Assembly: GCA_016700095.1 (NCBI GenBank)
Contig: CP065002.1
Coordinates: forward strand, 304,463 to 368,462
From: Candidatus Woesebacteria bacterium
GTDB lineage: Bacteria > Patescibacteriota > Microgenomatia > UBA8517
Direction of reading: 5' to 3'
DNA: 64,000 bases
Shown: positions 582 through 36,622 of the stretch, in pieces
How positions within the stretch are numbered: the first letter of the stretch is position 1
Layout: every line of letters starts with the position of its first letter
Notes under the pieces: model-generated
Databases searched by the model: none
Told to the model about the DNA's origin: nothing
What the model saw: only the letters and a program-made list of their open reading frames with translations
Translations under genes and position numbers: made by a program

Positions 582-3500
582 TTGTTAACACTGCCCATGA
601 GAACAAAATTAAATAGCTCCCAGAAAATAGATATTATAAATAGGGCTCTTTCGGGTGGATCAGTCACTGAAATCTGCAAAGATATAGGTATATCTAGGGT
701 TTTGTTCTATAGATTGCTTCAGAGATACAAAAAGTATGGAGAAAAAGGATTAGAAGAACGTAAAAAAGGTCGCCCCAGAAAGTATAGAGCACAAAAATTG
801 ACAACTAATATTCAAACAACAAACAATATTATCTCGGCTCATGAGAGATTGCGCATGGTAGAAGAAGTTGTTAATGAAGGAAGGCGTCCATCAGTGATTG
901 CAAAGAAGTATCAAGTTTCAAGACCAACGTTATATAAATGGATCAAAAGATATAAAAAGTCTCAACAAACAAGAATTCATGCTGTCGAAAACAAAACCCC
1001 CAAGTATTCGAGGTACTATAGGCAAGCTCCCGAATTATATGAAGATGCTGTTTTGTCACTGGTTACTAAGTTTCCTGAATATGGTGTAAGAAAAATCGTT
1101 GCCAATCTTCCTCAAATTGGTAAAAAACCAATTCTTGGGCATCATGGAGTACAAAACGTTTTACAGCGCCACAATTTATCAACTCTAGATAGGCGTATGG
1201 CGTATGCCAAATCTCAAGAGACTGTTATCACAAGTTCGATTTCTGGTGCTCTTTCCAAAATCAATAATTTCTTTGCTATTCCTTTGGAAACTCGACAAAA
1301 GGTTGTGCGCTTTTCGGCAGTGTTTTTTTTAACATCTTTTTTCACCGTAGTCCTTTTTGGCATGGGTGGAGCTGTTACGACTACTTTTATTGGAGTTCCG
1401 CTCGTAAAACAAATCGGTTTAACTCTTGCGTTAGTTGCTCTATTTATGGGGTCGGTATTTTTTGTATATTCACTTAAATACTATCTTACACTTGTCATTG
1501 TACTTTCGTTTTCTCAACAAGAAGATACCAATACGCGCCTGCGCGGAAACATTCTCCATAAATTATTAGGCTTAGTTGATGAAAACACCGATAAATCTAA
1601 ATTGGATCAAAAGCAAGCTGTAGGTTTAACTCCAAATTTAGACCATATCAAATTATCTCGTTACCCGTTTATTTCTGTTCAGATTCCTTTCTATAACGAA
1701 AAAAACGTAGCTGAGCGCGCAATTGCGGCAAGTACAAATTTTGATTACAAAGGTGATTATGAAGTTATTGTTTGCGATGATTCCACGGATGAAACTTTTG
1801 AAATAGTTAGAAATTACCAAAAACAGTACTTAGCAAAGAATTGCCAGTTAAAAATAAGTAAGGGTGATGGCTGGGATATGTCCGAAGTTGAAGTCAGACC
1901 CGGAGTAATTCTTAAACACCTTCACAGAACAACGCGGAGTGGATATAAAGGTGCTTCGTTAAAACTTGCATTGACCTTGGTTGATAAAAGAACTGAATTT
2001 GTAAGTATTTTCGATGCAGATTTCGTGCCGTATCCCGACAGTTTGGATTTATTTTTGAAATACTTTAAATCACAAAACGGTGGATCTGAAAATTACACTT
2101 CAAATAACATTGCCGCAGTCCAAGGATATCAATGGCATGTATTAAATAAATCAGAAAACTGGATAACAAGGGGAGTAAGAAGTGAATATGCAGGAAGTTA
2201 TGTAATAGAAAGAAGTGGTCAAGAAATTTATGGAGGATTAAAACACATTTCAGGAAGTGTATATATGATTAGGCGCGATGTGTTGGAAGAAGTAGGATGG
2301 AGATCTTCGATCACCGAAGATTATGAGCTTACGCTTCGGTTATACAATGCAGGATACAAAGTAGTATATACCCCATACATTCAGGCTCCAGCTGAGTGTG
2401 TTTCCACTTTGAAAAGGTTAATCAGACAAAGGATGAGGTGGGCAGAAGGACACAGTTTCAATGTCAAACTTATGTGGAAGAAATTATTAATTGGAAGATG
2501 GGAGTTGGCTAATAGTTCATCCACTGACTCGCATCAAGTTCATTCTTTGCATGGTACTAAAATGATGCGGGATGACAAAAAGGTATTCATTCCTAGTCCT
2601 CTAACCGTGGCTGAGAAAGTTGAATTTGTATTTAACATTCCTTACTACCTTCAAGCATTTCTATTTCTAATCGGGACTTTTGCCTGGTTACTCTCAGAGG
2701 CTGTATTCCAGGTAAGACTGCCTTTCTGGACTACTGTTTGGGGTTGGAGCCTCATCCTTACCAACATGTTTTCCTTGCCTTTGGTTAACGCAGTCGGCCT
2801 TTTCCTGGAAGAAAGTGAGGAAAGAGACTATCTTGGGCTTTTGTCATTTGTGGCACTTAGTTATATATTGGTTCCATTTCAGGCTTATTCGTCAGTTAAG
2901 GGTTTTATTCAAAAAGAAGAAGGGCCCTGGTTTAGAACTCCCAAAACTGGAAGAATTACAGACGTTTTCGCCCGAGGCAGGTTTTATCGTTTTATATCAG
3001 GAATTTTGCCGAAAAATTCAGGTAATAGAAATGAGGCACTAAGCGACAGTCTAAATACTGGTGCCTATTCACAAATGTCCAACTCGTATTTGTCGATGGT
3101 TACGGCAAACAATATTTTTAACACCTTTTCGATAAAACGAAAAACACAACGGTGGGTAGGTAAGCTTGCCTTGACTTCAATGGTTGCAGTTTCAATGTTG
3201 ATTGTGAGTTATGCACCGTATATCCCAAGCGGAAAGGTGAGTGTTGCAGCAGCTAATACGGGGGCAATACTGGCAGATAAAGCAATTGACAGCGACCAAC
3301 CAGTTGTGAATAAAGCAGGTAAAGCGCTCAATACAAATAATTTGGAAACAAATAAGGATGGTTTTACATTAACCTCTGACAATAAAGACTTCAAGATTAC
3401 AGATTCACCAAGTTTTCGTTTACAAGCCAGAACGAATTTCAAAGATAGGTTGGCAATAAATTTCGGCAACATCTTTAAAGGCAAAAATGAAAAGAAGGCG

Positions 3501-6500
3501 AGAATAATTAATGCTAAGGTAGTTAACCATAAAGGCAATGAATATGACGTTGGAATATTAGACGATAAGAATGGATATGAACTAGTTGTTGATTCCAATA
3601 ACTTGTCTCCGGGGTTATATGATTTAGTTGTTGAAGACAATCTGGGTAATAGTATTGCACAAGATTTTAGTTGGGGAGTGCTGGCAATTAACACCAACAA
3701 ATCGATTTACACGAAAGGGGAGAATGCCGAGTTGTCGTTTGCCGTACTCAATGAAGATGGGGAAATGGTATGTGATGCAAAATTAGAATTAGGAATTAGA
3801 AATTCGGAATTAGGAATCGATGAAACACTGTCAACCAATGACGGCTCAATACGTGTGACTCCCGGGTGCAATAGTAAAGAAATGTTATTAACTCCCGATT
3901 ATGAAGCGGAATATAAATTGGGGAGTATGGGTATTTATGAACTTACTTTGACTGCTACTACACATAATGGAAGCTATACAATTACTGACTCAATTGAGGT
4001 TCGAAAATCGGTAGAGTTTGACATAGAGCGTATTAGTGCGACACGTATTTATCCACTTTTAACGTACCCCGTGATATTTAATGTTATCCCGGAAAAGGAC
4101 TTTCAAGGAGTAATCACAGAAACGGTTCCTGCAGACTTTGCGATTGTTCGGATTACAGACGAAGAACTGAAAAATTATAGTACTAAAGAAAACAGCGTTG
4201 GTTCAAGTAAATTCTTAGACATCAAAAAACAGGGTGGTGTAGGGATAATTGAATGGCAGGTAAATTGGAAAAAAGGAGAAACTTATCATTTTGGCTATAA
4301 ATATGATGCTCCGGATAAAAGCCCAGCTCTTTACACTTTGGGTCCTTTGCAAATTGATGATTTTAGTGAAGCAAGAGTTTGGCAGATAGCGGTGGATGCA
4401 ATTTCAGGTATAACCGCCCGCAATTATGCGGTTGAAAATAGTAGTGATACAACCATAGCGGTATCTCCGGATGCTGCTATTACTGTCGGAAAAATTGCGA
4501 TCGTTTCGTGTGTGACTGATAATACAGCAACATCTGATGGGCCATCCACAGACCATTCATTGAGCGATACTGACGGGCATACTTGGAACAAGGTATTTGA
4601 AGAAACTGATTCTGCCGGTGCTGCTGCTGATGGTTCAACCACCTCATTGTGGTGGACGAAGGTTACAAGTGAAATCGGGACAGGTGATTCAATTACTTTG
4701 ACGTTAGGAACTGCCCGATCGGACAAGATTATTGCAATTGTAGAAGCTACTGTCGGAGCGGGTAATACCTTTGTCGCGATCCCTTCATCAGCTATCGATC
4801 ACTCAAATTCAGCTACCTCTTTGTCTGATGTTCAATCCGGGCTTACTAACCGGGAATATCTATTTTTTGGCTTGTTTGGAGCGGAAGGTGAAGACACTGC
4901 TAAAACTCCTATTGCCAACTATACCGAACAACACGACCGAGTGAGTACGACAACAGGTACAGCTGCCGTCAATGTGCAAATGCATGTCGGCACCCGAATC
5001 CTTACAGGGACTGGTGACACTTGGACAAGTTCGGCAGTCACTTTTACTAATGGTATCCAGTCTCTGACAGCATTTTATGAAGTTTCAAGTACCATAACTG
5101 TTTCCGGAAATGTATATAATTTTGGTACTTCGAGTGCTCTTACTGAATGTGATGCAAGTGGAGCAACACATGAATTAAGTTTGAGAGTTGGATCAACAAC
5201 CTATACCACAAGTTGTGATGCTTCAGATTCAGGTGCATATTCCTTCACTTCAGTTACACCTCCCTCGGGTGGATCGGGGATGGTGGTTTGGATTGATGAT
5301 GCCGAAGCTTCCGAGACAGATGGTGCAGCAGTTATTCAATACGATGGATCAGGTGATTCAACCGGAAATTCTTTTTACGATGATGCCGTGACTATTCTCA
5401 CTGATGATGGCAGTGGTGTCACGATTGATATGATGGATGCGTATGACAGTGGCGGTGATGCAGACATTCCCTATACTGCTACAAGTGGATCCCCCGATAC
5501 GCTTACGGTTTCCGATAATTATACATTGCTTATACCTTCTGGTGAGGTGTTTGCTCCGGGAGGGAATTTAAATAACGGTTCGGGAGCCGGAATAGATAAT
5601 ATTAATATATCAGGAACCTATACCGCAGCTACCGGGGAATCGATACTCGTTTCCGGTACCTGGACCCAGTCTGGTACCTTCACCTCAAGTACTTCCACTG
5701 TCACCTTTGATGCTCCTGGTGCTACAACTGAGGATATTGTTACAACAGGAAGTGGAGCATTTAACAATGTTGTCTTTAATGATGGGGAAGGTGGTGCCAC
5801 TTGGGAGATTGAAGATCCTCTGGATGTGGATGGTAACTTTACCATAACAGGTGGGACAGTGGATGTTGTAAGTGGAGAAGATAATCAGATTAACGTAGGA
5901 GGAAACTGGACCAATGATGATACTTTTGTGGAAAGAAGTGGAAAGGTAGTCTTTGATACTTCAACTACTGCTACCCTAGATAGTAACTGTTCCGATGTGG
6001 GTACTTGTACCAATGAGAATTTCTACGACCTGGAACTATCCAAAGCAAGTTCGGGGAATACCGTTACTTTGACTAACTTTGGTATACGGGTAACTAATAC
6101 CTTAACCCTCACTACGGGGACTTTGGTGCAAGGAGCATATAATGTCCGGGTTGAGGGGGCAACTGCAGTATCAGTAGCCTCAAATGGTATCTGGAGTAAT
6201 ACTTCAACAGGAGACGTGATCCTTGGTGGCTCCTTTGCCAATAGTGGCATAGTAACCATGCAGGGAACAACAAGCGCTTGCGGAGAAACTGATGCAATTT
6301 CAATCACCTCAACTTCAGGTGGAAGTCAAAGGAGTTGGACTAGTTTGGGAGGTACTTTCAACATGAATGATGTTTCGGTCCAGGACCAGGGAGGAAGTGC
6401 TGCAATTACAGTTTACTCTGGTACCAACGTCAGTGGTAACAATTCCAACTGGGTGTTTGAAGATTGTGTTACCAGTTCTACATCTTCTTCTGCTACAGGA

Positions 6501-8333
6501 CATTCATTCCAAAGAAAGACATTCTACGATGATGAAAATGAAACCTTCTGGAGGTTTTACCATGATGGTGATGAAGTTGACATAGAATATTCTAAAGATA
6601 GTGGTGATACCTGGAGTTCTACTACTGCCTTGGCATATGACACCAATGACTTTTCTGTCTGGTGGAAAGCAATCACGGTTGGAGAAACCACCACTGAATA
6701 TGTATGGATGGCAGTTACCACGTCAGATGATATCCTGGTCAGACGCGGGACATTAGGATCAACATCAGTCACCTGGGACAGTGAAGCCAATGTGGTTTCA
6801 CTTAATGGCACAGGAGCATCTGACACCTACTCATACCCATATATTTCGTTGGATGATGCAAACTATATGTGGGTGGGAGCAAGACATTACAATGGAACTA
6901 ACTATACGTATAAGACAGTAAGAAGTGATGCTTCTGACACCGGTAATGCCACCTGGAGTGGAGTAGGCTTTGGTTCTACTGTTCCCGTATCCCAAGTATC
7001 AGCTGACCAAACAAATGCAAATGTCTTTGGCAACATTGTTCCACTTAATGGCCAAGACATGTATGCAGCCTTTGTCAGTAACACTCTTCTTCAGGGTTGT
7101 GTCTGGGACCACAGTGACGCTGCCTGGGAAGATAGTGATGGGGCAAGTTGTGTTAGTACCGGTGGAAGTGCACCTGTATTTCGTGGAGAATCTTCTTCAA
7201 CTTTTACAACAGCAGCCAGCGTTGTGGTAAATAAACCGACAGGGACAGTCGATAACGACATTATGCTTGCAATTATTTATAAGGAAAATACCGCAGCAGT
7301 AACAGCACCATCAGGCTGGAATTATATTGATGGAGAAACACCGACGACTGATCATGATGTAATTGTTTACTGGAAAAGGGCGAGTTCGGAAGGTAGTAAC
7401 TACACCTGGAGTTGGACAGGAAGTACTTGGAGCGGGGGAGCGATTATGTCATATAGTGGTGCGATAACAACAGGAGATCCGGTAAATACTTATTCCGCCA
7501 ACAGCGCCTCATCAGGACAAACCTTGACCGCAACGGGTGTGACGACAAGTGTTGACAACACGACAATTGTTGCTTTGGGAGCACATTGGAATACGGGTAC
7601 GTATTCAGGACCAACCGGATATACTGTTCGAGCAACACCTCAATCTATGAGGCTTTCTGACAAAACCCAAGCCTCTGCGGGGGCTACAGGAGATGCTGTC
7701 ATGACAACATCTGCAAACAGTTCATCCTGGACTGCACATTTGGTTGCACTCAAACCTGCAGGTACACCCGGGAGTAGAGATGCAATTGATACTGTACCAA
7801 GTGGATTAAGCAAAAATATATCGGCCGTTGTTGATACTACCAATTACGATGTTCACCTTCTTTTTGTAGACGATGAATCAACAGATCAGGTAAGTTACAA
7901 AAGATGGGACAAGATAAACCAGGAATGGGATGTAACTGCAACCCTAGTTGCAGGTGGAACAAGTGATACCGATGCTTACGTATCCCTCTCGTATGATACG
8001 GATGCAAGTGATCTTTACGCAATCTGGATAGACACATCTACAAATCACATCTTCTACACAGCTTGTGACATATCAACACAGTGCAGTTTGGCCAGTGACT
8101 GGATAGTAGGAGTAGAAGAGGAGATAGACTGGCATACAGAAACACAACCAACCAACTTAACCAGTAACTACTCAAGTGGAACCAATGTCTTTGCTCAGTG
8201 GTCTGATGGATCAGGTTCACCATACTCTGTTGAGTGGGATATCATTGTGGTGCCGGAGTGGATTTGGTTAATTATTGTTGCCGGTCCGATTTTGCCACTT
8301 ATGGGTAAATTTAGAAAGAAAAGACATCAATGA
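582..8333 (+). CDS. Giant fusion protein (2583 aa): N-terminal transposase-like HTH modules, processive GT2 core, TM bundle, huge surface region, C-terminal VPE-hydrophobic-basic tail
   Basis: Uninterrupted 7.75 kb ORF. HTH motifs: 'GGSVTEICKDIGISRVLFYRLLQRYKKYG' and 'RRPSVIAKKYQVSRPTLYKWIKRYKK'. GT2 motifs: 'IVCDDSTDE' (DxD), 'FDADFVPYPD', 'ITEDYELTL' (TED), 'QRMRWAEGH' (QxxRW). TM helices before and after the GT domain. About 1700 aa T/S/G/D-rich C-terminal region. Tail 'VPEWIWLIIVAGPILPLMGKFRKKRHQ'. Confidence 0.85.
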   Translation: MLTLPMRTKLNSSQKIDIINRALSGGSVTEICKDIGISRVLFYRLLQRYKKYGEKGLEERKKGRPRKYRAQKLTTNIQTTNNIISAHERLRMVEEVVNEGRRPSVIAKKYQVSRPTLYKWIKRYKKSQQTRIHAVENKTPKYSRYYRQAPELYEDAVLSLVTKFPEYGVRKIVANLPQIGKKPILGHHGVQNVLQRHNLSTLDRRMAYAKSQETVITSSISGALSKINNFFAIPLETRQKVVRFSAVFFLTSFFTVVLFGMGGAVTTTFIGVPLVKQIGLTLALVALFMGSVFFVYSLKYYLTLVIVLSFSQQEDTNTRLRGNILHKLLGLVDENTDKSKLDQKQAVGLTPNLDHIKLSRYPFISVQIPFYNEKNVAERAIAASTNFDYKGDYEVIVCDDSTDETFEIVRNYQKQYLAKNCQLKISKGDGWDMSEVEVRPGVILKHLHRTTRSGYKGASLKLALTLVDKRTEFVSIFDADFVPYPDSLDLFLKYFKSQNGGSENYTSNNIAAVQGYQWHVLNKSENWITRGVRSEYAGSYVIERSGQEIYGGLKHISGSVYMIRRDVLEEVGWRSSITEDYELTLRLYNAGYKVVYTPYIQAPAECVSTLKRLIRQRMRWAEGHSFNVKLMWKKLLIGRWELANSSSTDSHQVHSLHGTKMMRDDKKVFIPSPLTVAEKVEFVFNIPYYLQAFLFLIGTFAWLLSEAVFQVRLPFWTTVWGWSLILTNMFSLPLVNAVGLFLEESEERDYLGLLSFVALSYILVPFQAYSSVKGFIQKEEGPWFRTPKTGRITDVFARGRFYRFISGILPKNSGNRNEALSDSLNTGAYSQMSNSYLSMVTANNIFNTFSIKRKTQRWVGKLALTSMVAVSMLIVSYAPYIPSGKVSVAAANTGAILADKAIDSDQPVVNKAGKALNTNNLETNKDGFTLTSDNKDFKITDSPSFRLQARTNFKDRLAINFGNIFKGKNEKKARIINAKVVNHKGNEYDVGILDDKNGYELVVDSNNLSPGLYDLVVEDNLGNSIAQDFSWGVLAINTNKSIYTKGENAELSFAVLNEDGEMVCDAKLELGIRNSELGIDETLSTNDGSIRVTPGCNSKEMLLTPDYEAEYKLGSMGIYELTLTATTHNGSYTITDSIEVRKSVEFDIERISATRIYPLLTYPVIFNVIPEKDFQGVITETVPADFAIVRITDEELKNYSTKENSVGSSKFLDIKKQGGVGIIEWQVNWKKGETYHFGYKYDAPDKSPALYTLGPLQIDDFSEARVWQIAVDAISGITARNYAVENSSDTTIAVSPDAAITVGKIAIVSCVTDNTATSDGPSTDHSLSDTDGHTWNKVFEETDSAGAAADGSTTSLWWTKVTSEIGTGDSITLTLGTARSDKIIAIVEATVGAGNTFVAIPSSAIDHSNSATSLSDVQSGLTNREYLFFGLFGAEGEDTAKTPIANYTEQHDRVSTTTGTAAVNVQMHVGTRILTGTGDTWTSSAVTFTNGIQSLTAFYEVSSTITVSGNVYNFGTSSALTECDASGATHELSLRVGSTTYTTSCDASDSGAYSFTSVTPPSGGSGMVVWIDDAEASETDGAAVIQYDGSGDSTGNSFYDDAVTILTDDGSGVTIDMMDAYDSGGDADIPYTATSGSPDTLTVSDNYTLLIPSGEVFAPGGNLNNGSGAGIDNINISGTYTAATGESILVSGTWTQSGTFTSSTSTVTFDAPGATTEDIVTTGSGAFNNVVFNDGEGGATWEIEDPLDVDGNFTITGGTVDVVSGEDNQINVGGNWTNDDTFVERSGKVVFDTSTTATLDSNCSDVGTCTNENFYDLELSKASSGNTVTLTNFGIRVTNTLTLTTGTLVQGAYNVRVEGATAVSVASNGIWSNTSTGDVILGGSFANSGIVTMQGTTSACGETDAISITSTSGGSQRSWTSLGGTFNMNDVSVQDQGGSAAITVYSGTNVSGNNSNWVFEDCVTSSTSSSATGHSFQRKTFYDDENETFWRFYHDGDEVDIEYSKDSGDTWSSTTALAYDTNDFSVWWKAITVGETTTEYVWMAVTTSDDILVRRGTLGSTSVTWDSEANVVSLNGTGASDTYSYPYISLDDANYMWVGARHYNGTNYTYKTVRSDASDTGNATWSGVGFGSTVPVSQVSADQTNANVFGNIVPLNGQDMYAAFVSNTLLQGCVWDHSDAAWEDSDGASCVSTGGSAPVFRGESSSTFTTAASVVVNKPTGTVDNDIMLAIIYKENTAAVTAPSGWNYIDGETPTTDHDVIVYWKRASSEGSNYTWSWTGSTWSGGAIMSYSGAITTGDPVNTYSANSASSGQTLTATGVTTSVDNTTIVALGAHWNTGTYSGPTGYTVRATPQSMRLSDKTQASAGATGDAVMTTSANSSSWTAHLVALKPAGTPGSRDAIDTVPSGLSKNISAVVDTTNYDVHLLFVDDESTDQVSYKRWDKINQEWDVTATLVAGGTSDTDAYVSLSYDTDASDLYAIWIDTSTNHIFYTACDISTQCSLASDWIVGVEEEIDWHTETQPTNLTSNYSSGTNVFAQWSDGSGSPYSVEWDIIVVPEWIWLIIVAGPILPLMGKFRKKRHQ

Positions 8334-8914
8334 ATCAGAAAAAAGTATTTAAAGATATATTGATTGTGACGGCAATTGTATTGTCGCTACTTCCCGTTAT
8401 TGTAACTTTTAGTGCAATACTAACCACGCTTTTCGACAAATTAAGTTGGTATGTGTGGCTGCAACGCGAAGTTGTACCCGTGGAATCCAGAATGGTTGCG
8501 GTATTGGTGAAGGTTGTCGGTATCGATGCTCAAATTACATCACATATTAATTTTTCCATGGTGTTAACCAGGGGTGAGACAATAATTCCAGTTCAATTGG
8601 AATGGAACTGTCTTGGTTGGCAAAGCATGATTTTACTTGTTACTACATTTGTAACAGGTTTGCGTGGGCGCTACAAATTGTCGTCGAAAATTGAAACAGT
8701 GATTATTGGCATACTCGGGACGTTTCTGTCAAACCTTTTTAGAATGGCTTTTATTGTTACCCTCGCTTATTACTGGAATAGCTTCGCAGCGATGATAATT
8801 CATGATTATTTCGCAAGCTTTATTGCCGTAGCTTGGATGCTATTTTTCTGGTGGTTTAGCTATAGCTATGTGCTTGATGAAAAAATAGAGAGTAACTTAA
8901 ACGAAGTGAAATAA
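8330..8914 (+). CDS. Mini exosortase/archaeosortase-domain membrane protein (194 aa), XrtG-like candidate
   Basis: Start overlaps the stop of the upstream giant (ATGA at 8330-8333). 4-5 predicted TM helices. Conserved with the 14085 paralog: 'WNCLGWQS' (Cys), 'GLRG(R/N)Y' (Arg), 'SNLFRMAF'/'INIFRLVF' (N-x-x-R), 'HDY/HNY', and C-terminal 'SYSYVL(D/E)EK'. Confidence 0.55.
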   Translation: MNQKKVFKDILIVTAIVLSLLPVIVTFSAILTTLFDKLSWYVWLQREVVPVESRMVAVLVKVVGIDAQITSHINFSMVLTRGETIIPVQLEWNCLGWQSMILLVTTFVTGLRGRYKLSSKIETVIIGILGTFLSNLFRMAFIVTLAYYWNSFAAMIIHDYFASFIAVAWMLFFWWFSYSYVLDEKIESNLNEVK

Positions 8915-9335: not shown

Positions 9336-9941
9336 TCACTCAATACTTATGTAAACAATAATTAGTAATAAAATATCTATAACAATAAATATTACTAAAG
9401 AAATAATAAAGGGGAGTGGAACACCAAAATATTTTTTAGTTGCACTAATACTTTTTCGATTATTTGTGTTTGTATTTTCTAAATGATTATTTTGCGAATT
9501 TTCAGTAAATGTTTCTGCAGCATTTATGGAAATGGTTTTATTTGTAGATATATTATTTTGTGTTAGTGGAATATTTGAAGTTGTGGTGCTGGTAGTATGA
9601 CCCATATCTACTATGGGGCTATTTGTTACACCAGAAGGATTAAAGTTAGTTGTAACATTATCGGATAGTATAGATGTTTTACTAGATTCCTTTTTAATAT
9701 TTTGCTCATTATTAGACGATACAATATTTTCTGAACTGTTTATCGTTTTATCGGAAATAGCATGCACGTATTTATTGCCAAATAATTTATCGAGATCTTG
9801 TTTGGAAAAATACCTGTGTCCACCGGGAGAGCGATGTGTGTCAATTTTTCCTGACATCTCCCACCTTCTTAGAGTATCAACAGAAACCCCCAAGTATTTA
9901 GCGGATTTTCCTATTCCTAGCTTGTCTTCTGTAATTTGCAT
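9336..9941 (-). CDS. MerR/excisionase-type HTH protein with N/S/T-rich linker and C-terminal TM anchor (201 aa)
   Basis: N-terminal 'SAKYLGVSVDTLRRWEMSGKIDTHRSPGGHRYFSKQDLDKL' is a typical MerR-type HTH. It is followed by a low-complexity Asn/Ser/Thr region and a C-terminal hydrophobic helix 'FIISLVIFIVIDILLLIIVYI'. Divergent from the 10008 giant gene. Confidence 0.55.
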   Translation of the reverse strand: MQITEDKLGIGKSAKYLGVSVDTLRRWEMSGKIDTHRSPGGHRYFSKQDLDKLFGNKYVHAISDKTINSSENIVSSNNEQNIKKESSKTSILSDNVTTNFNPSGVTNSPIVDMGHTTSTTTSNIPLTQNNISTNKTISINAAETFTENSQNNHLENTNTNNRKSISATKKYFGVPLPFIISLVIFIVIDILLLIIVYISIE

Positions 9942-10007: not shown

Positions 10008-13000
10008 GTGGTGATACATTTGAAAAACAAAAGGCTATTGACCTTGGTCCCACATGGTGCTTACACTTTATATGAACCTAAAAATTGGTATATGCAAAAG
10101 ACTGCCCTAACCGCAAAACAAAGATTGGCATTAATGGAATTGGTTTATAAATATAATGAATCAGTTACGGTTTGTTGTAAGAAATTTGGTGTTTCAAGAT
10201 TTACGTTTTACAAATGGGCTAAGTTTTATAGTGTAGGGTTATCGAGAAATGAAAACTTAACCAATCTTCGAGATAAAAAACCAGCTACAGTATCTACTCT
10301 TAATGCAACTCCATACGAGGTACAAGAGCAAATAAAACGTATTGCTGCAGAGAAACCTGATTCTAGCAAATACGAGATTGCAAAAGAGCTTAGAGATCGT
10401 CTAGGAGAAAAAGCAGTTGGTGTTCATGGAGTATATAATGTATTAAAACGTTCAGACTTGACCACTCCTGAAGCAAGAAAGGAATGGCAGTTATTTGTTC
10501 AAGCGAAAAGTAATATTGTACTTACAGCACCCCAAAGGCTTGAAGTTATAACCAGATCAGAAAAATTAAACATCCCAGTAACTGTTGTTTGTCGTGATTT
10601 TGGAATTTCTAGACAAACATATTATAAATGGAAAAGAAGATGGGAAGAAGGAGGACAAGATATTGATACACTAAGAGATAAAAAACAGCAGTATGATCGT
10701 AGAAAATTTAGAATCGATAGAGAAAAAGAAAAAGCAATCCTTTCGGTAATAATAGAAACACCGGATTTATCAAAATATAAAATCGCAGAAAAATTAAGAG
10801 AACTTGGATATGCTGTTAGTCCTCACGGGATATACAATGTCCTCTTGAGGAACGGATTGAACTTACCTGAAGGCAGAATGAATTATGCAGCAAATCATTC
10901 GCAAACAATTGAAACTCCCTCAATTGAATGGACAAACCGCATTAAGTCATCGTTGGAACAGTTTTTGCCCACACTAGCGCCAGCGCCACCTCCAGTATTT
11001 AATATTATAATTAACTTCACTAAAACTTTTCTTGCTTCATCTGTCTTTGCCTTAGCCGTTTCTTATTCAAGTGTGTGGTGGTTGAATTTTTTACTAACCC
11101 AAACAACACATGTAGCTATTGGATTATTCTTTGCTACACTAGCTTTACTTACTGGATCGATATTTTTCCTTTATTCCTTAAAATACTATATAACCCTTGC
11201 GGTTGTACTTTCTTACTCGAAAGACCAAAATACTATCGGTATAGATAGTACAACTCCGTTAAAACAAAAAGGATTAATATCAAGGATAATCGGGTTTAAC
11301 AATAATACTAGTGTTGATGAAAATATTCCTGTTGGGTTAACATCGGATTTAAGTGGGATTAATATTTCTAAAAAACCATTTGTCTCAATACATATTCCTT
11401 TCTATAACGAAAAATATGTAGTAAGGCGATCAATCGAAACGGCTGTTAATTTTGATTATCAGGAGTATGAAATTATTTTATGCGATGACTCGACTGATGA
11501 TACTTCTACTATTATTAGAAACTATCAAATAGATCATTTACCAATTGGTGAAAAACTTGAAGTCGTTAGTGGTAAGGGATGGGAGATGGCAACAGTCGAA
11601 ATTCGTCCCGGTGTGTTTCTAAAACATCTTCATAGAATATCAAGGGGAGGATTTAAAGGCGGTGCATTAAAAATTGCCTTGGAATTGGTTGATCCAAGAT
11701 GTGAATTTATATCTGTATTTGACGCAGACTTTGTCCCATATCCAGATACTATAAACCTATTTCTTAAATACTTTAAAATACAAAACGGTATGTCGGAAGA
11801 CTATGCCAAAAGCGCAGTCGCCGCAGTCCAAGGCTATCAGTGGCATGTTCTTAACAAATCAGAAAACTGGATAACCAGGGGAGTAAGAAGTGAATATGCA
11901 GGAAGCTATGTAATTGAAAGAAGCGGTCAGGAAATTTACGGAGGCCTAAAGCATATCTCGGGAAGTGTATATATGATTAGAAGGGATGTATTAGAGAAAG
12001 TGGGTTGGAATACGTCTATTACCGAGGATTATGAATTAACACTTAGGCTTTATGATGCCGGTTACAAAGTAGTCTACACCCCATACATTCAAGCCCCAGC
12101 TGAATGTGTATCTACCTTAAAACGCCTAATCAGACAAAGAATGCGATGGGCAGAAGGACACAGTCACAATGTAAAACTGATGTGGAAGAAACTTCTATTT
12201 GGAAGCTGGGAAGAAACTGGTGGTTTATCTAACACTCCACACCAGGTTCTTGCTTCACAGACAACAAAATTGATGCGGGATGGCAATGCCGCTTATAGTA
12301 GTGTAGCGACATTGTCAAATTCTAGAAGTAGAATATTTGTTCCATCTCCACTTACCATTGCAGAAAAGATTGAATTTCTTTTCAATATGCCTTACTACCT
12401 TCAAGCATTTCTATTTCTAATCGGGACTTTTGCCTGGTTACTCTCAGAGGCTGTATTCCAGGTAAGACTGCCTTTCTGGACTACTGTTTGGGGTTGGAGC
12501 CTCATCCTTACCAACATGTTTTCCTTGCCTTTGGTTAACGCAGTCGGCCTTTTCCTGGAAGAAAGTGAGGAAAGAGACTATCTTGGGCTTTTGTCATTTG
12601 TGGCGCTTAGTTATATATTGGTTCCATTTCAGGCTTATGCTTCTATCAAAGGCTTTCTGGAAGACAAAGAAGGTGGGTGGTTTAGAACTCCTAAAACAGG
12701 AAGAATTACTGATGTATTTACAAGAGGCAGATTTTATAGGTTTATACAAGGAGTATTGCCCAGAAGAGGGGGTCAGCCTGCAGTAGCTGAAGCAGGTGTT
12801 TCTCAAGCTTATCTTGCACTTAATTCTGCCAACAATCAATTCAATTCATTTAGTATTAAACCCAAGAAAGTGTTCTGGTTAGGAAAAGCTTCGCTGGCTT
12901 TTGTTTTAATTGTTGTTATGTTATTGAACTCTCTGGCTTTTAGAGTAAAACCAGCTGAAGCTTGGTATGGTACAGAAGGTTGGTCGTATAGGATTAAACT

Positions 13001-14063
13001 GACTGTAAAAAACGGAAAAGTTGATGCAGATTTGTCAAACTTTCCGGTTTATGTAAATTTAGATGATTTGCCTGATGCTACTTTTTGGGCTCATGTTAAA
13101 TCTCTATGTGCTGATGTAAGAGTAACAAATTCTGGAGGATCAACAGAGCTTCCTATTGAAATTGTTTCCTGCGACACGACTGCAAAAACGGGTGAGATGT
13201 ATTTTAAAGCTGACAGTTTGGCAGATTCAACTGATACTGATTTTTATATTTATTATGGTAATTCGGGTGCTTCTTCCTATGAAGTTACCGACACCTATGG
13301 CAGAAATAACGTCTGGACTAATGGCTATGGTGGAGTTTGGCACATGGGCGGCGGAACATTGATCGATTCCAGCGGGAATGTCGGTAATTCAACAACACAA
13401 ACCGGTACGGAATATACGTCGGGAAAAGTAGGTATAGCAACAGATTATTCGGGATCACAGAGGTCAATTATGCCGACTGCCACGACAATAGACGAAGATG
13501 TATTGGATAGCTTAACTTATACCGTTTGGGTTAATAGTGATTCTACTTCGTGGGGCAGGCAAATGGAAAAAAGTAATCAATATTTTCTTTTGGGTAATTA
13601 CGCTGGGACTGGATCGGCCGGTCCTCTACTGAAAATTAGCGGCTCCAATCAGGTTGCGACTGTAGGTACTTTGAGTACCGGAACATGGTATCAGGTTGGT
13701 GGTAGATATTCTTATTCTGGCGGGACTACTGGAGTTCTTAACGCTATCTTGAATGGTAATATAAATGCTACAACAAGCAATCTATCTAATTACATAGATT
13801 CTGCAAATACTGGCCTGTATGTCGGTTCAGACGATTCAGGTGGTTATTTTAATGGTAAGATGGATGAGCTTCGAATTGCGTCTGTTGTTAGAACGACCAA
13901 TTGGCTATCAACCGAATACAACACTCTTAATGACACATCAACTTTTTATTCTCTTGAAGCGGAAGAGGAAGTGCCGGAGTTGGTTATTTTATTGCTGCCG
14001 TTAGCAATCTTGATTCCTTTTGTAGTTAAATATCATGAAAAAAGAAGGAGGCTAGTCGTATAA
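10008..14063 (+). CDS. Fusion protein paralog 2 (1351 aa): two transposase-like HTH, processive GT2, TM bundle, LamG-containing surface domain, VPE-CTERM-like tail
   Basis: HTH: 'VTVCCKKFGVSRFTFYKWAKFY' and 'VTVVCRDFGISRQTYYKWKRRWEEGG'. GT2: 'ILCDDSTDD', 'FDADFVPYPD', 'ITEDYELTL', 'QRMRWAEGH'. LamG signature: 'YFNGKMDELRIASVVRTTNWLSTEYN'. Tail: 'VPELVILLLPLAILIPFVVKYHEKRRRLVV'. The true start may be the downstream Met at ~10092. Confidence 0.85.
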   Translation: MVIHLKNKRLLTLVPHGAYTLYEPKNWYMQKTALTAKQRLALMELVYKYNESVTVCCKKFGVSRFTFYKWAKFYSVGLSRNENLTNLRDKKPATVSTLNATPYEVQEQIKRIAAEKPDSSKYEIAKELRDRLGEKAVGVHGVYNVLKRSDLTTPEARKEWQLFVQAKSNIVLTAPQRLEVITRSEKLNIPVTVVCRDFGISRQTYYKWKRRWEEGGQDIDTLRDKKQQYDRRKFRIDREKEKAILSVIIETPDLSKYKIAEKLRELGYAVSPHGIYNVLLRNGLNLPEGRMNYAANHSQTIETPSIEWTNRIKSSLEQFLPTLAPAPPPVFNIIINFTKTFLASSVFALAVSYSSVWWLNFLLTQTTHVAIGLFFATLALLTGSIFFLYSLKYYITLAVVLSYSKDQNTIGIDSTTPLKQKGLISRIIGFNNNTSVDENIPVGLTSDLSGINISKKPFVSIHIPFYNEKYVVRRSIETAVNFDYQEYEIILCDDSTDDTSTIIRNYQIDHLPIGEKLEVVSGKGWEMATVEIRPGVFLKHLHRISRGGFKGGALKIALELVDPRCEFISVFDADFVPYPDTINLFLKYFKIQNGMSEDYAKSAVAAVQGYQWHVLNKSENWITRGVRSEYAGSYVIERSGQEIYGGLKHISGSVYMIRRDVLEKVGWNTSITEDYELTLRLYDAGYKVVYTPYIQAPAECVSTLKRLIRQRMRWAEGHSHNVKLMWKKLLFGSWEETGGLSNTPHQVLASQTTKLMRDGNAAYSSVATLSNSRSRIFVPSPLTIAEKIEFLFNMPYYLQAFLFLIGTFAWLLSEAVFQVRLPFWTTVWGWSLILTNMFSLPLVNAVGLFLEESEERDYLGLLSFVALSYILVPFQAYASIKGFLEDKEGGWFRTPKTGRITDVFTRGRFYRFIQGVLPRRGGQPAVAEAGVSQAYLALNSANNQFNSFSIKPKKVFWLGKASLAFVLIVVMLLNSLAFRVKPAEAWYGTEGWSYRIKLTVKNGKVDADLSNFPVYVNLDDLPDATFWAHVKSLCADVRVTNSGGSTELPIEIVSCDTTAKTGEMYFKADSLADSTDTDFYIYYGNSGASSYEVTDTYGRNNVWTNGYGGVWHMGGGTLIDSSGNVGNSTTQTGTEYTSGKVGIATDYSGSQRSIMPTATTIDEDVLDSLTYTVWVNSDSTSWGRQMEKSNQYFLLGNYAGTGSAGPLLKISGSNQVATVGTLSTGTWYQVGGRYSYSGGTTGVLNAILNGNINATTSNLSNYIDSANTGLYVGSDDSGGYFNGKMDELRIASVVRTTNWLSTEYNTLNDTSTFYSLEAEEEVPELVILLLPLAILIPFVVKYHEKRRRLVV

Positions 14064-14084: not shown

Positions 14085-14657
14085 ATGAATAAAAATAATC
14101 AATTAACTAAAGATACTTTCAAACTATTATTAGTTTTATTGGTGATTGTTCTTTTAATATTACCCTTTGCGACGGCATTTAATGAATTTCTAACTGAGGT
14201 TGTGGAAAATATTGGATTTTATATGGTCATTCAAAGCACCCTTGTGCCGTACATGAGTATGCTAACGGCTGCAATATTGAATATTTTGCCCGGACTCGAA
14301 GTGGGAATATTACCTTATGGAGTGGTAGTTAACGGTATTGACGTGCGTATCACCTGGAATTGTTTGGGTTGGCAAAGCTTTTTGCTTTTTTTTGCATCTT
14401 TATTTGTAGGACTAAGGGGAAATTACTCTGGAAGTTCTAAAATTCAGGCTGTCTTGTTTGGTTTATTGGGTACATTTATCATCAATATTTTTCGTTTGGT
14501 ATTTACAGCCGCACTAGTTGTATGGTGGAGAGGATTGTTTGTTATTCTATTTCACAATTATTTTTCGACCTTTATCGCTATACTTTGGCTTATACTTTAT
14601 TGGTGGATTTCTTATAGCTATGTGTTGGAAGAGAAAGATGGGGAGATTAATAAATAA
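14085..14657 (+). CDS. Mini exosortase/archaeosortase-domain membrane protein paralog (190 aa)
   Basis: 21 bp downstream of the giant gene. Multi-TM. Shares 'ITWNCLGWQSFLL', 'GLRGNY' and 'NIFRLVF' with the 8330 paralog. Confidence 0.55.
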   Translation: MNKNNQLTKDTFKLLLVLLVIVLLILPFATAFNEFLTEVVENIGFYMVIQSTLVPYMSMLTAAILNILPGLEVGILPYGVVVNGIDVRITWNCLGWQSFLLFFASLFVGLRGNYSGSSKIQAVLFGLLGTFIINIFRLVFTAALVVWWRGLFVILFHNYFSTFIAILWLILYWWISYSYVLEEKDGEINK

Positions 14658-14861: not shown

Positions 14862-15167
14862 TTACAATAGACTTCGAAGTCGAAAGTCGGGAAAGAGTGT
14901 TTTTTGCAGATTTAGGTCATGACCTTTGGCTACCCTAATTGCTTCAAGAATTGTTTTTATGCCTGCGATGTTAAGTTTGCGTTCAAATGATAAATATTTA
15001 AGAAACTGCAAATCGTTAAGGTCTGCGACACTAAACATTCTTCGTTTGGTTTTGGTGCGGTGGGGAGTTAGAAGTCCCGCTTTTTCATAAGCCATGATAG
15101 TTCGTATATGCAATTCAAGCAGTTTTGCCGCTATGGAAATAGTCAGAATTGGTTGATCGTTATTCAT
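14862..15167 (-). CDS. MerR-family transcriptional regulator (101 aa)
   Basis: 'LTISIAAKLLELHIRTIMAYEKAGLLTPHRTKTKRRMFSVADLNDL' is a MerR-type HTH plus the start of a dimerisation helix. Confidence 0.6.
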   Translation of the reverse strand: MNNDQPILTISIAAKLLELHIRTIMAYEKAGLLTPHRTKTKRRMFSVADLNDLQFLKYLSFERKLNIAGIKTILEAIRVAKGHDLNLQKTLFPDFRLRSLL

Positions 15168-16113: not shown

Positions 16114-19100
16114 ATGTCTGCCCGATGTAAAAGTAAATATTCTCCAAGTGAAAAAGAAACAATAGTTCTGGAGTGCATTGGTAATAATAAATCAATAACA
16201 AAACTAGCCAAGAAGTATAAAGTGTCTAGGAAAACTTTATATTCGTGGCTGAAAAGATATAAAAACAGCGCAAATAGAAATAAAAATAAAGCCCTGGTGA
16301 ATGCTTATGTCAAAGGAAAAGATCATCCTAAAAGCAAAGTTAGTTCTATTAAATCTAAGGTTATTCGTATTGTAAGCGCACATCCAGAGTGGGGAGCGCG
16401 CTCTATAAGTAATGAACTAAAAAAGCAAGGCTGTGATATTGGATTTTTTGCAGTGCATACCTTTCTACAGTCGATGTCGATTGAAAGAAGAGATTTAAGA
16501 GAGAGTTTTGCCACTAATTATACAGGCCCCGGGAGATATATGCCTGATGTGAAGCTCGAGATTATTAACAAGTTTAGGCAGGGAGAAACTGTTTCCAGTC
16601 TTTCTGACAGTTACGCGATATCGCGAAAGACGCTTTATCAATGGATCAGAAAGATACAAAATATATCAGATGTTTCAAAATACGATTTGGCGGATGCTTA
16701 TGTATCGGGAGAGAAACATCCCTTCGCTGTTTATCCAAAAATCGAAGCTCACCTACTTAGTATTGTCAAAAAACACCCCGACTATTCGATTCACAAATTA
16801 GCCGAACTACTGCCTGTGTCGTCATGGACGGTTTGGTCGACGCTTAGCCGAAACGGTTTGTCTACTTATACAGAGCGTCAGCGGTTTGCAAACCAAGGTG
16901 GCGTGATAGGGAAGACGGACTATTCTCCACAGGTTAGAAGTACCCTGGAGCAGTTCATGCCCACTTTGGCACCGGCTCCGCCTCCGGTTTCTTCGTCCAG
17001 AATTAAAACGAATCTTAAACCATCATATAAACAACTTGCACGTCACTTCTTATTTTCCGCAATATCTTCGTTAATTGTTGCCTTAACTACTCGATACTGG
17101 GTGTCAATTTTAATATCTGCGAGCTCGTTTTCGGAAGGAATAGGCCTGGTACTGGCTACTGTTGCACTTTTCTCCGGAGGGATTTTCTTCCTCTACTCAC
17201 TGAAATATTATTTAACCTTAGCCGTTGTTCTTTCCTACTCGCAGGATGAGAAAGAAAATGCTGACGAGAAATCTCCCACTAAATTTATTTCATGGTTATT
17301 GGGGAAAAATGGGTCAAGCCATAATTTCGGCAAGAGTGGTTTAGAGCCGAACCTCGAGCATGTAAATCTAAAAAATCATCCTTACATCTCAGTCCAAATA
17401 CCATTTTTCAACGAGAAATATGTAGCCGAGCGTGCAATTAGTGCGGCAATTAATTTTGACTACAAGGGCGATTACGAGGTTTTGGTTTGTGACGACTCAA
17501 CCGATGAAACAACACAGATAATCAGGAGTCTTCAACAAAAATATTTACCCGACAACAAAAAACTAAAAATATTTATTAACAAAGAAGAAGGCTGGGAATT
17601 GTCAACAGTTGAGGTGAGACCGGGTGTCTTACTTAAACATTTACACAGGACAAGCAGGTCCGGATTTAAAGGAGGTGCTCTAAAAGTAGCGCTTAATTTA
17701 GTCGACCCAAGATGTGAATTTATTACCATTTTTGATGCCGACTTTGTACCATATCCCGATTCGCTTGATCTTTTCTTAAAGTACTTTAAGTTGCAAAACA
17801 ATGGCTCGGAGGATTATACACATAGTGATGTTGCTGCAGTTCAAGGATATCAGTGGCATGTTCTTAACAAATCAGAAAACTGGATAACCAGGGGAGTAAG
17901 AAGTGAATATGCAGGAAGCTATGTAATTGAAAGAAGTGGTCAAGAAATTTACGGAGGTTTAAAGCATATCTCGGGAAGTGTATATATGATTAGACGTGCG
18001 CCCTTAACCGAGGTTGGTTGGGATACTTCAATTACAGAAGATTATGAACTTACGCTTAAGCTTTACGAAAAAGGCTATCGAGTAGTCTACACCCCATATA
18101 TCCAAGCTCCGGCTGAATGCGTTTCCACCTTGAAACGCTTGATTAGACAAAGAATGCGATGGGCAGAAGGACACAGTCACAATGTAAAACTGATGTGGAA
18201 GAAACTTCTATTTGGGAGTTGGGAAGAGAAAGAGTCTGTTGGTAGTTCAAACAGCAAGTGTTTTGTCCCAAGTCCACTTACTGCGGCAGAAAAGATTGAA
18301 TTTCTTTTCAACATGCCTTACTACCTTCAGGCGTTTTTGTTTTTAATTGGAACATTTGCCTGGTTACTTTCGGAAACAGTTTTTCAAGCACGTCTTCCTT
18401 TCTGGACCGTTATTTGGGGTTGGAGCCTCATCCTTACCAACATGTTTTCCTTGCCTTTGGTTAACGCAGTTGGCCTTTTCTTGGAAGAAAGTGAAGATCG
18501 TGATTATGTCGGGTTGGTAAGTTTTACACTTCTTTCGTATATAGTTGTTCCATTCCAAGCATATGCATCATTAAAGGGATTCCTCGAGAAAGAAGAGGGT
18601 GGATGGTTTAGAACTCCTAAAACAGGAAGAATTACGGATGTGATTGCCAGAGGCAGATTTTATCGTTTTATATCCGGAATTTTGCCCGGCAAAGAAAATG
18701 TCAGTTCACTTGATACAAATTATTTGTCAATGGTTACGGCAAACAACATTTTCAACACCTTTTCAATAAAGCGAAAAACACAACGGTGGGTAGGTAAACT
18801 TGCCCTAACTTCGATGGTTGCGGTTTCTTTGTTAATTGTAAGTTTTGCACCATATATCCCTATCGGAAGAAACGGTGTTTTAGCGTTTGATGCAAACTCG
18901 ATTGTTTCACCTGGGGAGGCGAAACATACTTCGGATTTTTCTTTTGAAAATGAAACTAATAATTTTTCGATAACGGGACTTAGCCGTGATTTCAAAGTCG
19001 ACGAGGTACCGGGTTTTCATTTAGATGTAAAAACCGCACTTGTCGAACGCGTGCGTATTAACTTCAATCAAGTTATCGGTAAAGAGTTATCAAAAACAAT

Positions 19101-26669: not shown

Positions 26670-28094
26670 TTGCCAAATATATTTGAAACATATACCAATT
26701 GTGATAATGTAAGTAAACGTTTTGGTGCAGGAAATTATATGGAAAAAAGTGCTATACCCGAAGAAACTGAAACAATTGCCGCCAAAAGATCAAAAAGGCT
26801 GACGCAAAAAATACTTGAAGCACGACAAAAATTAAATCAACGCAAAGCCTGGTGGAGCAATGCTTTGGTTGAAATACTAATTGTAGGAATTGTTTTTGTG
26901 CTTAATGTTTATCTTGTGATTGAATACTTTGATACCTTTGCTTACGAGACTGCCTTTTCCGGACCTGTCATACCATTGACAATAAAACTTGTCCAAGTAT
27001 TTAATGTTTCGTATTTAAAGGCTTTGCAGTTGGTTAACATATTTTTCTTCATGTTTTTCCCAATTTCCATGTACGTATTTATTAGGCATTTCACAGAAAG
27101 AAAACTGGCGGCAGTAACGGGTATATTAATTATTTCACTTCCGTATTATCCATTTGCTGAGACGAGAATAAATGCGGCACTATTGGCACAAGATTCCGCG
27201 CACATGGCGTCACTTGTAATTATTCCTTTTGCTTTGATTACAATGCATAAGTTTATCAAAGAGGGGAAAACATCAAATTTGATATTTGTTTCTCTAACCA
27301 CTGCCTTGATTGCGTTGGCTTCACCATTTGGACTTCTTACTTATTTGATAATTTCTCTTGTGGTAACGTTTTCTGAAGTTTTATTGGGAAAAGGGCGCTT
27401 GAAACTGACGAGATTAATATTTGCGCTTATAATTGGTGCTGGCTTGACATCGTTTTGGTACAATCCCGGTTTTATATATTGGATAATTACCGGTCCGATG
27501 GGTTCGGACTTGAAAGGTACTTTGTCGAGATTGATACCCATGACCTTTTTTACTTTACCAATATTGGCCACCTTTGGCTATCTATTGTTTGATCGAAAAC
27601 CGCAATTGCAATCATTGTTTGTTTCCTTTTTCCTGCTTGTTTCTTTTTTGGTACTTTCAAGCGCCGGAGGTGGAATATTTTCTCTGCACCCAAGTAGATA
27701 TGTGCCGGAATTGGGAATTTCTTTGGCTTTTTTTATTGGTATTGTTTTTGTCCGAATTGGAGATTATATATCGATGCGTGAACTTAAAATCAATAAAGCA
27801 AAACCAGGCATTAATGGTAAAACACTAATCAGATCAGCAACCGTACTTGTGCTTGTTATGCTTATCGTTGGTGTGATTTTGGGAAAAGAGAATGTTTCTC
27901 AGCCCAGAAAAGTACTAGGATACTGGTCCCAAGTAGAAAAGAGTGAAATTTGGATGGCAAGGGATGAAGTGAGAGGATCGTTTGTTATACTTGGTTATAT
28001 AATTACGTTTTCAAGCGTATCGGCACTAGGATTTGTTTCGCTTGAGGCTAGAAAGGAACAGAAAAGCAAAATAGTTAAGAGTTATAAAGTTTGA
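26670..28094 (+). CDS. Polytopic integral membrane protein (474 aa), function unknown
   Basis: About 10 hydrophobic helices. Lies immediately after giant paralog 3. No mini-sortase motif. Confidence 0.5.
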   Translation: MPNIFETYTNCDNVSKRFGAGNYMEKSAIPEETETIAAKRSKRLTQKILEARQKLNQRKAWWSNALVEILIVGIVFVLNVYLVIEYFDTFAYETAFSGPVIPLTIKLVQVFNVSYLKALQLVNIFFFMFFPISMYVFIRHFTERKLAAVTGILIISLPYYPFAETRINAALLAQDSAHMASLVIIPFALITMHKFIKEGKTSNLIFVSLTTALIALASPFGLLTYLIISLVVTFSEVLLGKGRLKLTRLIFALIIGAGLTSFWYNPGFIYWIITGPMGSDLKGTLSRLIPMTFFTLPILATFGYLLFDRKPQLQSLFVSFFLLVSFLVLSSAGGGIFSLHPSRYVPELGISLAFFIGIVFVRIGDYISMRELKINKAKPGINGKTLIRSATVLVLVMLIVGVILGKENVSQPRKVLGYWSQVEKSEIWMARDEVRGSFVILGYIITFSSVSALGFVSLEARKEQKSKIVKSYKV

Positions 28095-36586: not shown

Positions 36587-36622
36587 ATAAATGAGAAAGT
36601 GCGACCTGACAAAACGCCTTAA

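Follow-up and report, generated by a model that had tools for sequence, protein, structure and literature searches.

Exosortases as Haft described them have eight or more transmembrane (TM) helices, and the classical enzymes serve many substrates. Haft also noted that Cys, Arg, and His residues form the putative catalytic triad of the exosortase/archaeosortase family and that, in dedicated sorting systems, enzyme and target are regularly encoded as consecutive genes. Processing has experimental support for archaeosortase A and the PGF-CTERM signal of the Haloferax volcanii S-layer glycoprotein, from which the C-terminal helix is removed and a lipid anchor substituted (Haft). The XrtG system of Firmicutes consists of a mini-exosortase, an adjacent CTERM target, and associated glycosyltransferases (PMC12854382). 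Here we analyze a stretch of 64,000 nucleotides (nt) from a Candidatus Woesebacteria bacterium, a member of the Microgenomatia (contig CP065002.1, positions 304,463 to 368,462 of the forward strand). We refer to this stretch as the window and number it from its first letter. It encodes three giant proteins, each built around a glycosyltransferase family 2 (GT2) domain and each ending in a short motif, a hydrophobic helix, and a cluster of Lys and Arg residues; two of the three are followed immediately by the gene for a miniature exosortase. The best reading is that these tails are a dedicated PEP-CTERM-like sorting signal of a "[V/I]-P-E-x" flavor whose substrate is the GT2 giant itself, and we consider it probable that the tail acts as the recognition and cleavage signal of the neighboring mini-exosortase.

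The giants lie on the plus strand at 582-8333 (giant 1, 2583 aa), 10008-14063 (giant 2, 1351 aa), and 16114-26643 (giant 3, 3509 aa). Annotation with Pfam and NCBIfam domains gives the same order in all three: tandem transposase-like helix-turn-helix (HTH) domains, TM helices, the GT2 domain, further TM helices, a variable region, and the tail. The GT2 domain is of the processive kind, related to PgaC and cellulose synthase (CelA). The LamG-like DUF2341 is the sole Pfam domain recognized in the variable region, which is shorter in giant 2 and DUF2341/LamG-like there. At the C-terminus, tail 1 (8247-8333, plus strand) comprises VVPE (8247-8258), the hydrophobic stretch WIWLIIVAGPILPLMG (8259-8306), and KFRKKRHQ with the stop codon (8307-8333). 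Tail 2 (13968-14063, plus strand) is made up of EVPE (13968-13979), LVILLLPLAILIPFVV (13980-14027), and KYHEKRRRLVV with the stop codon (14028-14063), and tail 3 (26494-26643, plus strand) of VVPE (26494-26505), NIWFLMLLSPLF (26506-26541), TKPKHRKKIK (26542-26571), and an extension of 23 aa (26572-26643). An initial annotation of this DNA had pointed to a motif, a TM helix, and a basic cluster on all three giants and had likened the arrangement to the tripartite format of exosortase and archaeosortase signals; the translations agree on both counts, and its coordinates were right to within a few bases. The hydrophobic stretch is 12-16 residues long, shortest in giant 3, and the distance from the start of the motif to the C-terminus is 27, 30, and 48 residues, compared with mostly 26-70 in the related loci introduced below.

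We built a hidden Markov model (HMM) from 50 tails of other genomes, none of them from the window, and searched it against the 601 open reading frames (ORFs) of the window. It matched exactly the three giants (E = 1.9e-6, 1.5e-4, and 2.5e-7 for tails 1, 2, and 3), with the next best ORF at E = 0.49. Recovery of precisely these proteins by a model made from foreign tails indicates that the tail is a conserved homology domain and not a chance resemblance. No further window ORF of at least 150 aa ends in a VPE-type tail. The Lys at +15 and short hydrophobic stretch seen in giant 3 are common across the tail family.

Mini-exosortase 1 (8330-8914, plus strand, 194 aa) has a start codon that overlaps the stop codon of giant 1 (ATGA); mini-exosortase 2 (14085-14657, plus strand, 190 aa) follows giant 2 after a gap of 21 nt. 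Against TIGR04178 (cut-off 23) they score 41.0 and 37.0 bits. The first contains Cys94 (8609-8611), Arg138 (8741-8743), and His158 (8801-8803), and the second Cys93 (14361-14363), Arg137 (14493-14495), and His157 (14553-14555). Cys94 (within WNCLGWQS), Arg138, and His158 are invariant in 20 aligned homologues and again in 29 sequences that include the gene fusions considered below. Judged by profile score and by these residues, both small proteins are members of the exosortase/archaeosortase family, and by homology they are predicted to act as endopeptidases or transpeptidases on their cognate tails. The adjacent mini-sortases of the initial annotation are thus present beside giants 1 and 2, but giant 3 is followed by a PF10131-like protein. 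Named subfamily models fit the enzymes poorly: ArtC is best at 28.6 bits against a cut-off of 100, XrtG (TIGR03110) reaches 16.6 against 102.75, and XrtY and CrtC score lower. No solved structure matched by sequence, and the best Foldseek hit had E = 0.39; the AlphaFold2 model of mini-exosortase 1 has a mean predicted local distance difference test score (pLDDT) of 79.8. A profile search of 1.84 billion cluster representatives returned 470 relatives, 169 of them at E <= 1e-10, so few that the mini-sortase clade must be small.

Comparison with related loci ties tail and enzyme together. We used two samples, 51 genome loci picked via the sortase and analyzed together with the window, and 77 metagenome loci (957 kb, 3693 ORFs) picked via the GT2 domain; individual loci carry handles beginning with L. 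When ORFs ending just upstream of sortases in the genome loci were taken without imposing any motif, most proved to finish with [V/I]PE, then a hydrophobic stretch and a group of Lys and Arg residues. A pattern search of the 1381 ORFs of at least 80 aa in the genome loci and the window found the tail in 37; each shares the strand of the sortase and, save one likely spurious match, each is a whole or partial GT2 giant. A relaxed regular expression that required PE gave 54 tail ORFs and 62 sortase ORFs in the same material. In 40 of the 54, no more than 150 nt separate the tail stop codon from a sortase ORF on the same strand, and a further nine tails lie within 3.5 kb of one, again on the same strand and typically with one intervening gene, often for a tetratricopeptide repeat (TPR) protein. 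Sortases without an upstream tail in the genome loci are nearly all at contig edges.

In the metagenome loci we counted 61 tail ORFs (150 aa or longer) and 62 sortase ORFs, every one of them on the strand of the GT2 gene. The nearest downstream sortase begins within 150 nt of the tail stop codon in 32 of the 61, at 151-1500 nt in 16, and beyond 1500 nt in six; four tails have no sortase in their locus, and three are uninformative, with too little downstream sequence. Overlaps of stop and start codons as ATGA are frequent. Metagenome loci scored as having a sortase only carry variant tails (APE...) that fall below the threshold of the tail HMM, and of the 23 scored as having neither, 17 contain GT2 ORFs that run off the contig, three have variant "VPEIPKK...ELPV" tails, and three have a truncated GT2 gene. 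Among the 77 GT2-selected loci we saw no complete member of the GT2 subfamily without a PE-type tail. The GT2 subfamily, the tail, and the mini-sortase thus travel together, with coupling seen both in loci selected by the sortase and in those selected by the GT2 domain. Enrichment of the tail beside the enzyme, which the initial annotation had anticipated, therefore extends over about 128 independent loci and several natural fusions. The arrangement is that of Haft's dedicated systems, a C-terminal tripartite domain and consecutive genes (a sortase is at most 150 nt away for 40/54 and 32/61 tails), and the tails display the hydrophobic TM segment and subsequent basic cluster of his criteria 4 and 5. 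The many-unrelated-targets version of his criteria 2, 7, and 8 is not what we find: every target is a GT2 giant.

This last point bears on whether the mini-exosortases process proteins encoded elsewhere, their position next to the giants reflecting a shared cell-envelope operon. One-to-many service would be in keeping with classical exosortases, and the window represents only 64 kb of a 1.27 Mb genome. Yet across approximately 1.6 Mb of related loci we found the tail on no ORF besides giants or giant fragments, and the stop/start overlaps and in-frame fusions bind the enzyme to this particular C-terminus; we judge it very improbable that the principal substrates lie elsewhere. The dedicated processing system originally proposed for the giants thus finds strong comparative backing, with cleavage and lipid attachment predicted from homology.

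Several features of these loci deserve mention in their own right. In some, a large TPR-like protein with a "...NPDQP..." C-terminus is encoded between giant and sortase (L003 8059-9996, L026 1453-4431, L032 7092-10004), and in some metagenome loci the gene in that position encodes a protein of roughly 260-325 aa instead. The GT2 ORFs of L054, L075, L077, and L108 share a tail sub-variant, "I[TV]VPEIP[KR]K" followed by a TM helix, a basic cluster, and, in the cytoplasm, roughly 35 further aa with a conserved "(D/E)(E/Q)LPV" at the end; in L075 the sole sortase lies about 4 kb downstream. L050 (2-685), on a contig labelled Dormiibacterota, encodes a distant sortase relative preceded by a different tail, "...LAESPLPAAGLALLAPLAAAALLGRRRRRQM". 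Many "binchicken" metagenome-assembled genomes (L001, L006-L008, and others) that carry a module of the candidate phyla radiation (CPR) type are labelled "uncultured Gammaproteobacteria", probably a mislabel. In L006, L011, L012, L021, and L025 the giant is split, and we considered whether the tail-bearing pieces were independent small substrates; this was rejected, the GT2 and tail pieces overlapping in different frames. We favor frameshifts or errors of assembly as the cause, although pseudogenes or real recoding could also account for the split giants.

The composition of the tail is itself informative. Among the 54 tails selected with the PE-requiring expression, Val or Ile precedes the PE (positions 0 and +1) at -1 in 47, Pro occurs at +11 in 34 and at +14 in 33, and Lys or Arg predominates at +18 to +24. 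The third residue of the motif is most commonly Asn, Lys, Tyr, or Arg, with Pro outside the top six, and a few variants start with APE or TPE. Across loci, 12-19 uncharged residues are followed by 3-8 Lys or Arg residues in a cluster that is Lys-rich, not Arg-rich. It is conceivable that such a tail is an ordinary stop-transfer anchor, maybe equivalent to the TM helix with which a BcsA/PgaC-type synthase ends, the surface region being a giant loop inserted ahead of it and the mini-exosortase serving as a non-cleaving partner or acting elsewhere in glycan export. The helix architecture of BcsA lends this idea some credit, in that the order found in the giants (a gating-loop-like WFRTPK, one TM helix, the surface region, and the tail helix) is what one would predict if the tail helix and the helix preceding it were the last two of a processive GT2 enzyme; moreover, the giant is membrane-bound whether or not the putative cleavage takes place. 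A plain anchor, however, needs neither an invariant Pro-Glu at its outer edge nor prolines fixed in register across tails only 20-40% identical, and the full Cys/Arg/His triad is kept in every mini-sortase partner, while in the gene fusions the sortase comes straight after the tail. We consider a simple anchor unlikely and continue to favor a signal read by the mini-exosortase.

Those fusions join substrate and enzyme physically. In P0191 (946 aa) and P0231 (1227 aa) a single chain contains a GT2 domain, a surface domain, "FPIEVPEN", a TM helix, a basic cluster, a short linker, and a sortase; P0195 (338 aa) consists of the end of a surface domain, the tail, and a sortase. P0191 is a continuous ORF, verified on its contig (L052, 3331-6171), and matches both GT2 and exosortase models; its TIGR04178 score is 36.7 bits, and that of P0195 is 41.1 bits. 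P0191 and P0231 are rich in Ala and Gly (high GC) and are devoid of HTH domains. P0191 has an HTH_45 protein as its neighbor and may come from an archaeal host. The tail helix of the fusions, running from outside to inside, leads straight into the first sortase helix, which runs from inside to outside, and this fits the topology deduced below for the separate proteins.

Tail and sortase also appear to share a history. The more alike two tails are, the more alike their adjacent sortases tend to be (Mantel r = 0.29, a value reached in 0 of 2000 permutations), a result that fits co-evolution. The two tail-sortase pairs of the window represent different old lineages: both members of the first pair have L004 as their nearest relative (sortase 60%, tail 39%), and both members of the second have L028 (sortase 64%, tail 50%).

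A crude hydropathy scan, read with the positive-inside rule, gives a putative topology of the giants. In giant 1 the helix at residues 859-875 has four Lys/Arg residues before it and one after, and its tail helix has none before and five after; over the three giants the corresponding figures are 4-5 and 1-2 for the helix that precedes the variable region and 0 and 5-6 for the tail helix. This distribution places the variable region outside the cell and the Lys/Arg cluster inside, so that we infer export of the variable region, with an extracytoplasmic portion of some 1670 residues in giant 1. The initial annotation had suggested that processing might cut the surface domain away from the synthase. 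Nothing besides the presence of a protease homologue speaks for such a release. The motif comes where the surface region finishes on its C-terminal side, 1670 (giant 1), 345 (giant 2), and approximately 2550 (giant 3) residues past the TM helix that joins it to the GT2 domain, and the tail HMM shows no second VPE-type site near that helix. Cleavage at VPE would remove some 25-48 residues, the C-terminal anchor only. Since the motif is at the distal end, the connection with the GT2 membrane domain would be preserved and release would demand a second cleavage; we regard it as extremely improbable and abandon this part of the proposal.

If the tail is indeed a signal for the mini-exosortase, events might proceed as follows. 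The giant would insert into the membrane via its GT2 TM domain. It begins with cytoplasmic HTH domains followed by the GT2 membrane domain, so its export must rely on an internal signal-anchor helix; the helix after the gating-loop-like WFRTPK motif would play this part (N-in, C-out), and the variable region would be exported. The tail helix would then act as a stop-transfer anchor, with the Lys/Arg cluster remaining in the cytoplasm. The co-translated mini-exosortase, using Cys94, Arg138, and His158, would recognize [VI]PE at the outer face of the membrane together with the Pro-containing helix (+11, +14), and would cleave at the motif or just past it, the putative cleavage site, so that the tail helix and its Lys/Arg residues would be lost. 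If ArtA and PGF-CTERM are a guide, the freshly exposed C-terminus would probably be moved to another anchor, a lipid or a glycan, and the surface region would keep its N-terminal connection with the synthase. For giant 3, one of the two window sortases would probably act in trans; the second giants of L008 and L014 would likewise be served in trans.

A number of considerations weigh against this interpretation. Cleavage is a prediction from homology, and since a cleaved giant would still be held in the membrane by its GT2 domain, the gain from "sorting" is not evident. The tail helix could be equivalent to the last helix of BcsA-type synthases, and genetic linkage alone would also yield the correlation between tail and sortase identity. 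The giants have no N-terminal signal peptide and share one common architecture, which departs from Haft's criteria 6 and 7. An AlphaFold2 model of the natural fusion P0195 showed no confident docking of tail and sortase, with pLDDT below 50 over the motif. The window contains no third sortase, so giant 3 has none of its own, and the second giants of L008 and L014 are likewise without one. Finally, the CTERM domain models of NCBIfam 20.0 and Pfam, among them the PEP-CTERM models TIGR02595 and PF07589, matched neither the three window tails nor, subsequently, 34 tails at E values up to 10, although HMMER filters may hide very weak matches; single tails gave stray matches (E 0.06-0.34) to three PEP-CTERM protein models. 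The tail is therefore not a catalogued signal.

Giant 3 differs from its neighbors in what comes after it. We considered whether its additional 23 aa might be the remnant of a deleted sortase gene and rejected the idea, a profile of the sortase N-terminus scoring -1.7 bits. The gene that begins 26 nt after giant 3 (26670-28094, plus strand) encodes a polytopic membrane protein of 474 aa that resembles PF10131 (PTPS_related; 25.4 bits against a cut-off of 26.4). Homologues stand directly after the sortase in L017, L019, L027, L036, and L048 and after the second giant in L014; recurrence of the latter order suggests that the giant 3 arrangement is a regular layout. Downstream lie two large PF10131 membrane proteins (33377-39616, plus strand; 1069 and 997 aa; 31.1 and 44.8 bits against 26.4), two GT4 enzymes, and a methyltransferase. 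The large PF10131 proteins and the giants belong to one glycan-biosynthesis island.

Giants 1 and 3 also share DNA. Positions 5644-7153 and 23394-24902 are near-identical (1510 nt, 99.9%), as are 7785-8257 and 26032-26504 (473 nt, 99.8%; BLASTN). The GT2 parts of the two giants are 76-79% identical, and this disparity indicates that the surface regions have recently undergone gene conversion or cassette exchange. The second tract stops with the second base of the VVPE Glu codon, so the initial annotation was right that the shared cassette ends at the motif; its further suggestion that the motif is thereby marked as a functional junction is less secure, a single event being weak evidence.

The N-termini of the giants present an odd combination, a polysaccharide synthase with a tethered DNA-binding domain. 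Two transposase-like HTH domains open each protein (582-1300, 10008-10900, and 16114-17000), upstream of the first membrane helix, and match HTH_28, HTH_23, and HTH_Tnp_1 and the N-termini of IS481/IS630-like proteins; fusion of HTH to GT2 is kept in at least 20 related loci. Two small MerR-type HTH genes on the minus strand (9336-9941 and 14862-15167), the first with a C-terminal membrane helix, are situated between the giant/sortase modules and may be local regulators. Elsewhere in the window, 30930-32576 encodes a polytopic membrane protein of 548 aa without a Pfam match, whose sole and weak NCBIfam match (E = 0.0015, 17 bits) is to the STT3 oligosaccharyltransferase associated with the archaeosortase A system; it may serve the same envelope pathway as a GT-C enzyme. 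On the minus strand, 49509-63934 holds three very large ORFs (1925, 2022, and at least 889 aa) without a VPE tail, the 1925 aa protein having a LamG-like appearance at its C-terminus. Identical shadow ORFs recur there every 954-955 nt (starts at 60755, 61710, and 62664), a spacing that hints at a long tandem repeat within the gene.

What the processed C-terminus would be attached to is a matter of broader interest. The chemistry of the exosortase acceptor is an outstanding question, and whether archaeosortase is a one-step transpeptidase was left unresolved in a 2023 preprint (Haft). In the present case the putative acceptor might be close at hand: the mini-exosortase could be a transpeptidase that joins the exported C-terminus to the glycan made by its own GT2 domain, or to a lipid-linked intermediate handled by the PF10131 proteins. 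We think this quite doubtful, but were it true, the locus would be a self-contained module of synthase, cargo, and sortase that covalently couples protein and polysaccharide on a CPR cell surface, the single-chain fusions of GT2, cargo, VPEN tail, and sortase would be autoprocessing versions of it, and a minimal, compact system would be available for asking what exosortases attach their substrates to. Even apart from this possibility, the clade is unusually small and explicit. An enzyme of about 190 aa, a single adjacent and sometimes fused substrate, and a polysaccharide synthase on the same chain should make it attractive for reconstitution and structural work. The findings also bear on the surface of the Microgenomates, in which the giants are plausible host-contact or envelope-building proteins. 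In addition, some 470 clusters labelled only "exosortase/archaeosortase family protein" gain a definable cognate signal that could be converted into an annotation model.

How, then, does this system relate to those already described? The searchable literature contains no paper that links exosortases to Patescibacteria, and on sortases of the CPR and Microgenomates it deals only with the classical LPXTG sortase. The window system resembles PEP-CTERM and its XrtA-type exosortases in its tripartite signal, which starts with V-P-E, abuts the TM helix without a spacer, and is followed by a basic cluster; in the enzyme family with its Cys/Arg/His triad; and in its setting among polysaccharide biosynthesis genes. 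It differs in the third residue of the motif (Asn, Lys, Tyr, Arg, or Trp rather than Pro), in an enzyme of only about 190 aa, in a relationship that is one-to-one or one-to-few instead of one-to-many, in a monoderm-type CPR host, and in substrates that lack a signal peptide and are themselves polytopic GT2 synthases.

The likeness to XrtG seems even greater. In that system, covered by TIGR03110-03112, the target is a Firmicu-CTERM protein and two glycosyltransferases are associated. Both systems pair a miniature exosortase of some 190 aa with a dedicated adjacent target in bacteria lacking an outer membrane, and both include a GT2 enzyme in the operon; with the PF10131-type membrane proteins of its island, the window has the components of XrtG systems (exosortase, GT2, PF10131 protein). 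Here, however, target and GT2 are one polypeptide, also bearing N-terminal HTH domains, and the curated models do not support membership: the sortases reach 16.6 bits against 102.75 for TIGR03110 and the GT2 domain 22.9 against 363.95 for TIGR03111. We suggest that the window system works like XrtG without belonging to it. Archaeosortase A with PGF-CTERM, likewise at work in a single-membrane cell, offers the best mechanistic model for the mini-sortase, although its motif is PGF, its enzyme is larger, and its substrate is an S-layer protein with a normal signal peptide. JDVT-CTERM and its CPBP protease follow a similar logic, one target per enzyme, co-operonic neighbors, and conserved residues in the TM helix that suggest recognition within the membrane; that protease belongs to an unrelated family (glutamic CPBP), and its motif is Cys-based.

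Set beside these systems, the one we have begun to outline looks like a one-enzyme, one-substrate version of a known kind of sorting, undescribed so far and not categorically new. Its unusual aspect lies in the putative substrate, a polysaccharide synthase that is itself polytopic, carries cytoplasmic HTH domains, and lacks a signal peptide, and to which some lineages have fused the sortase as well.

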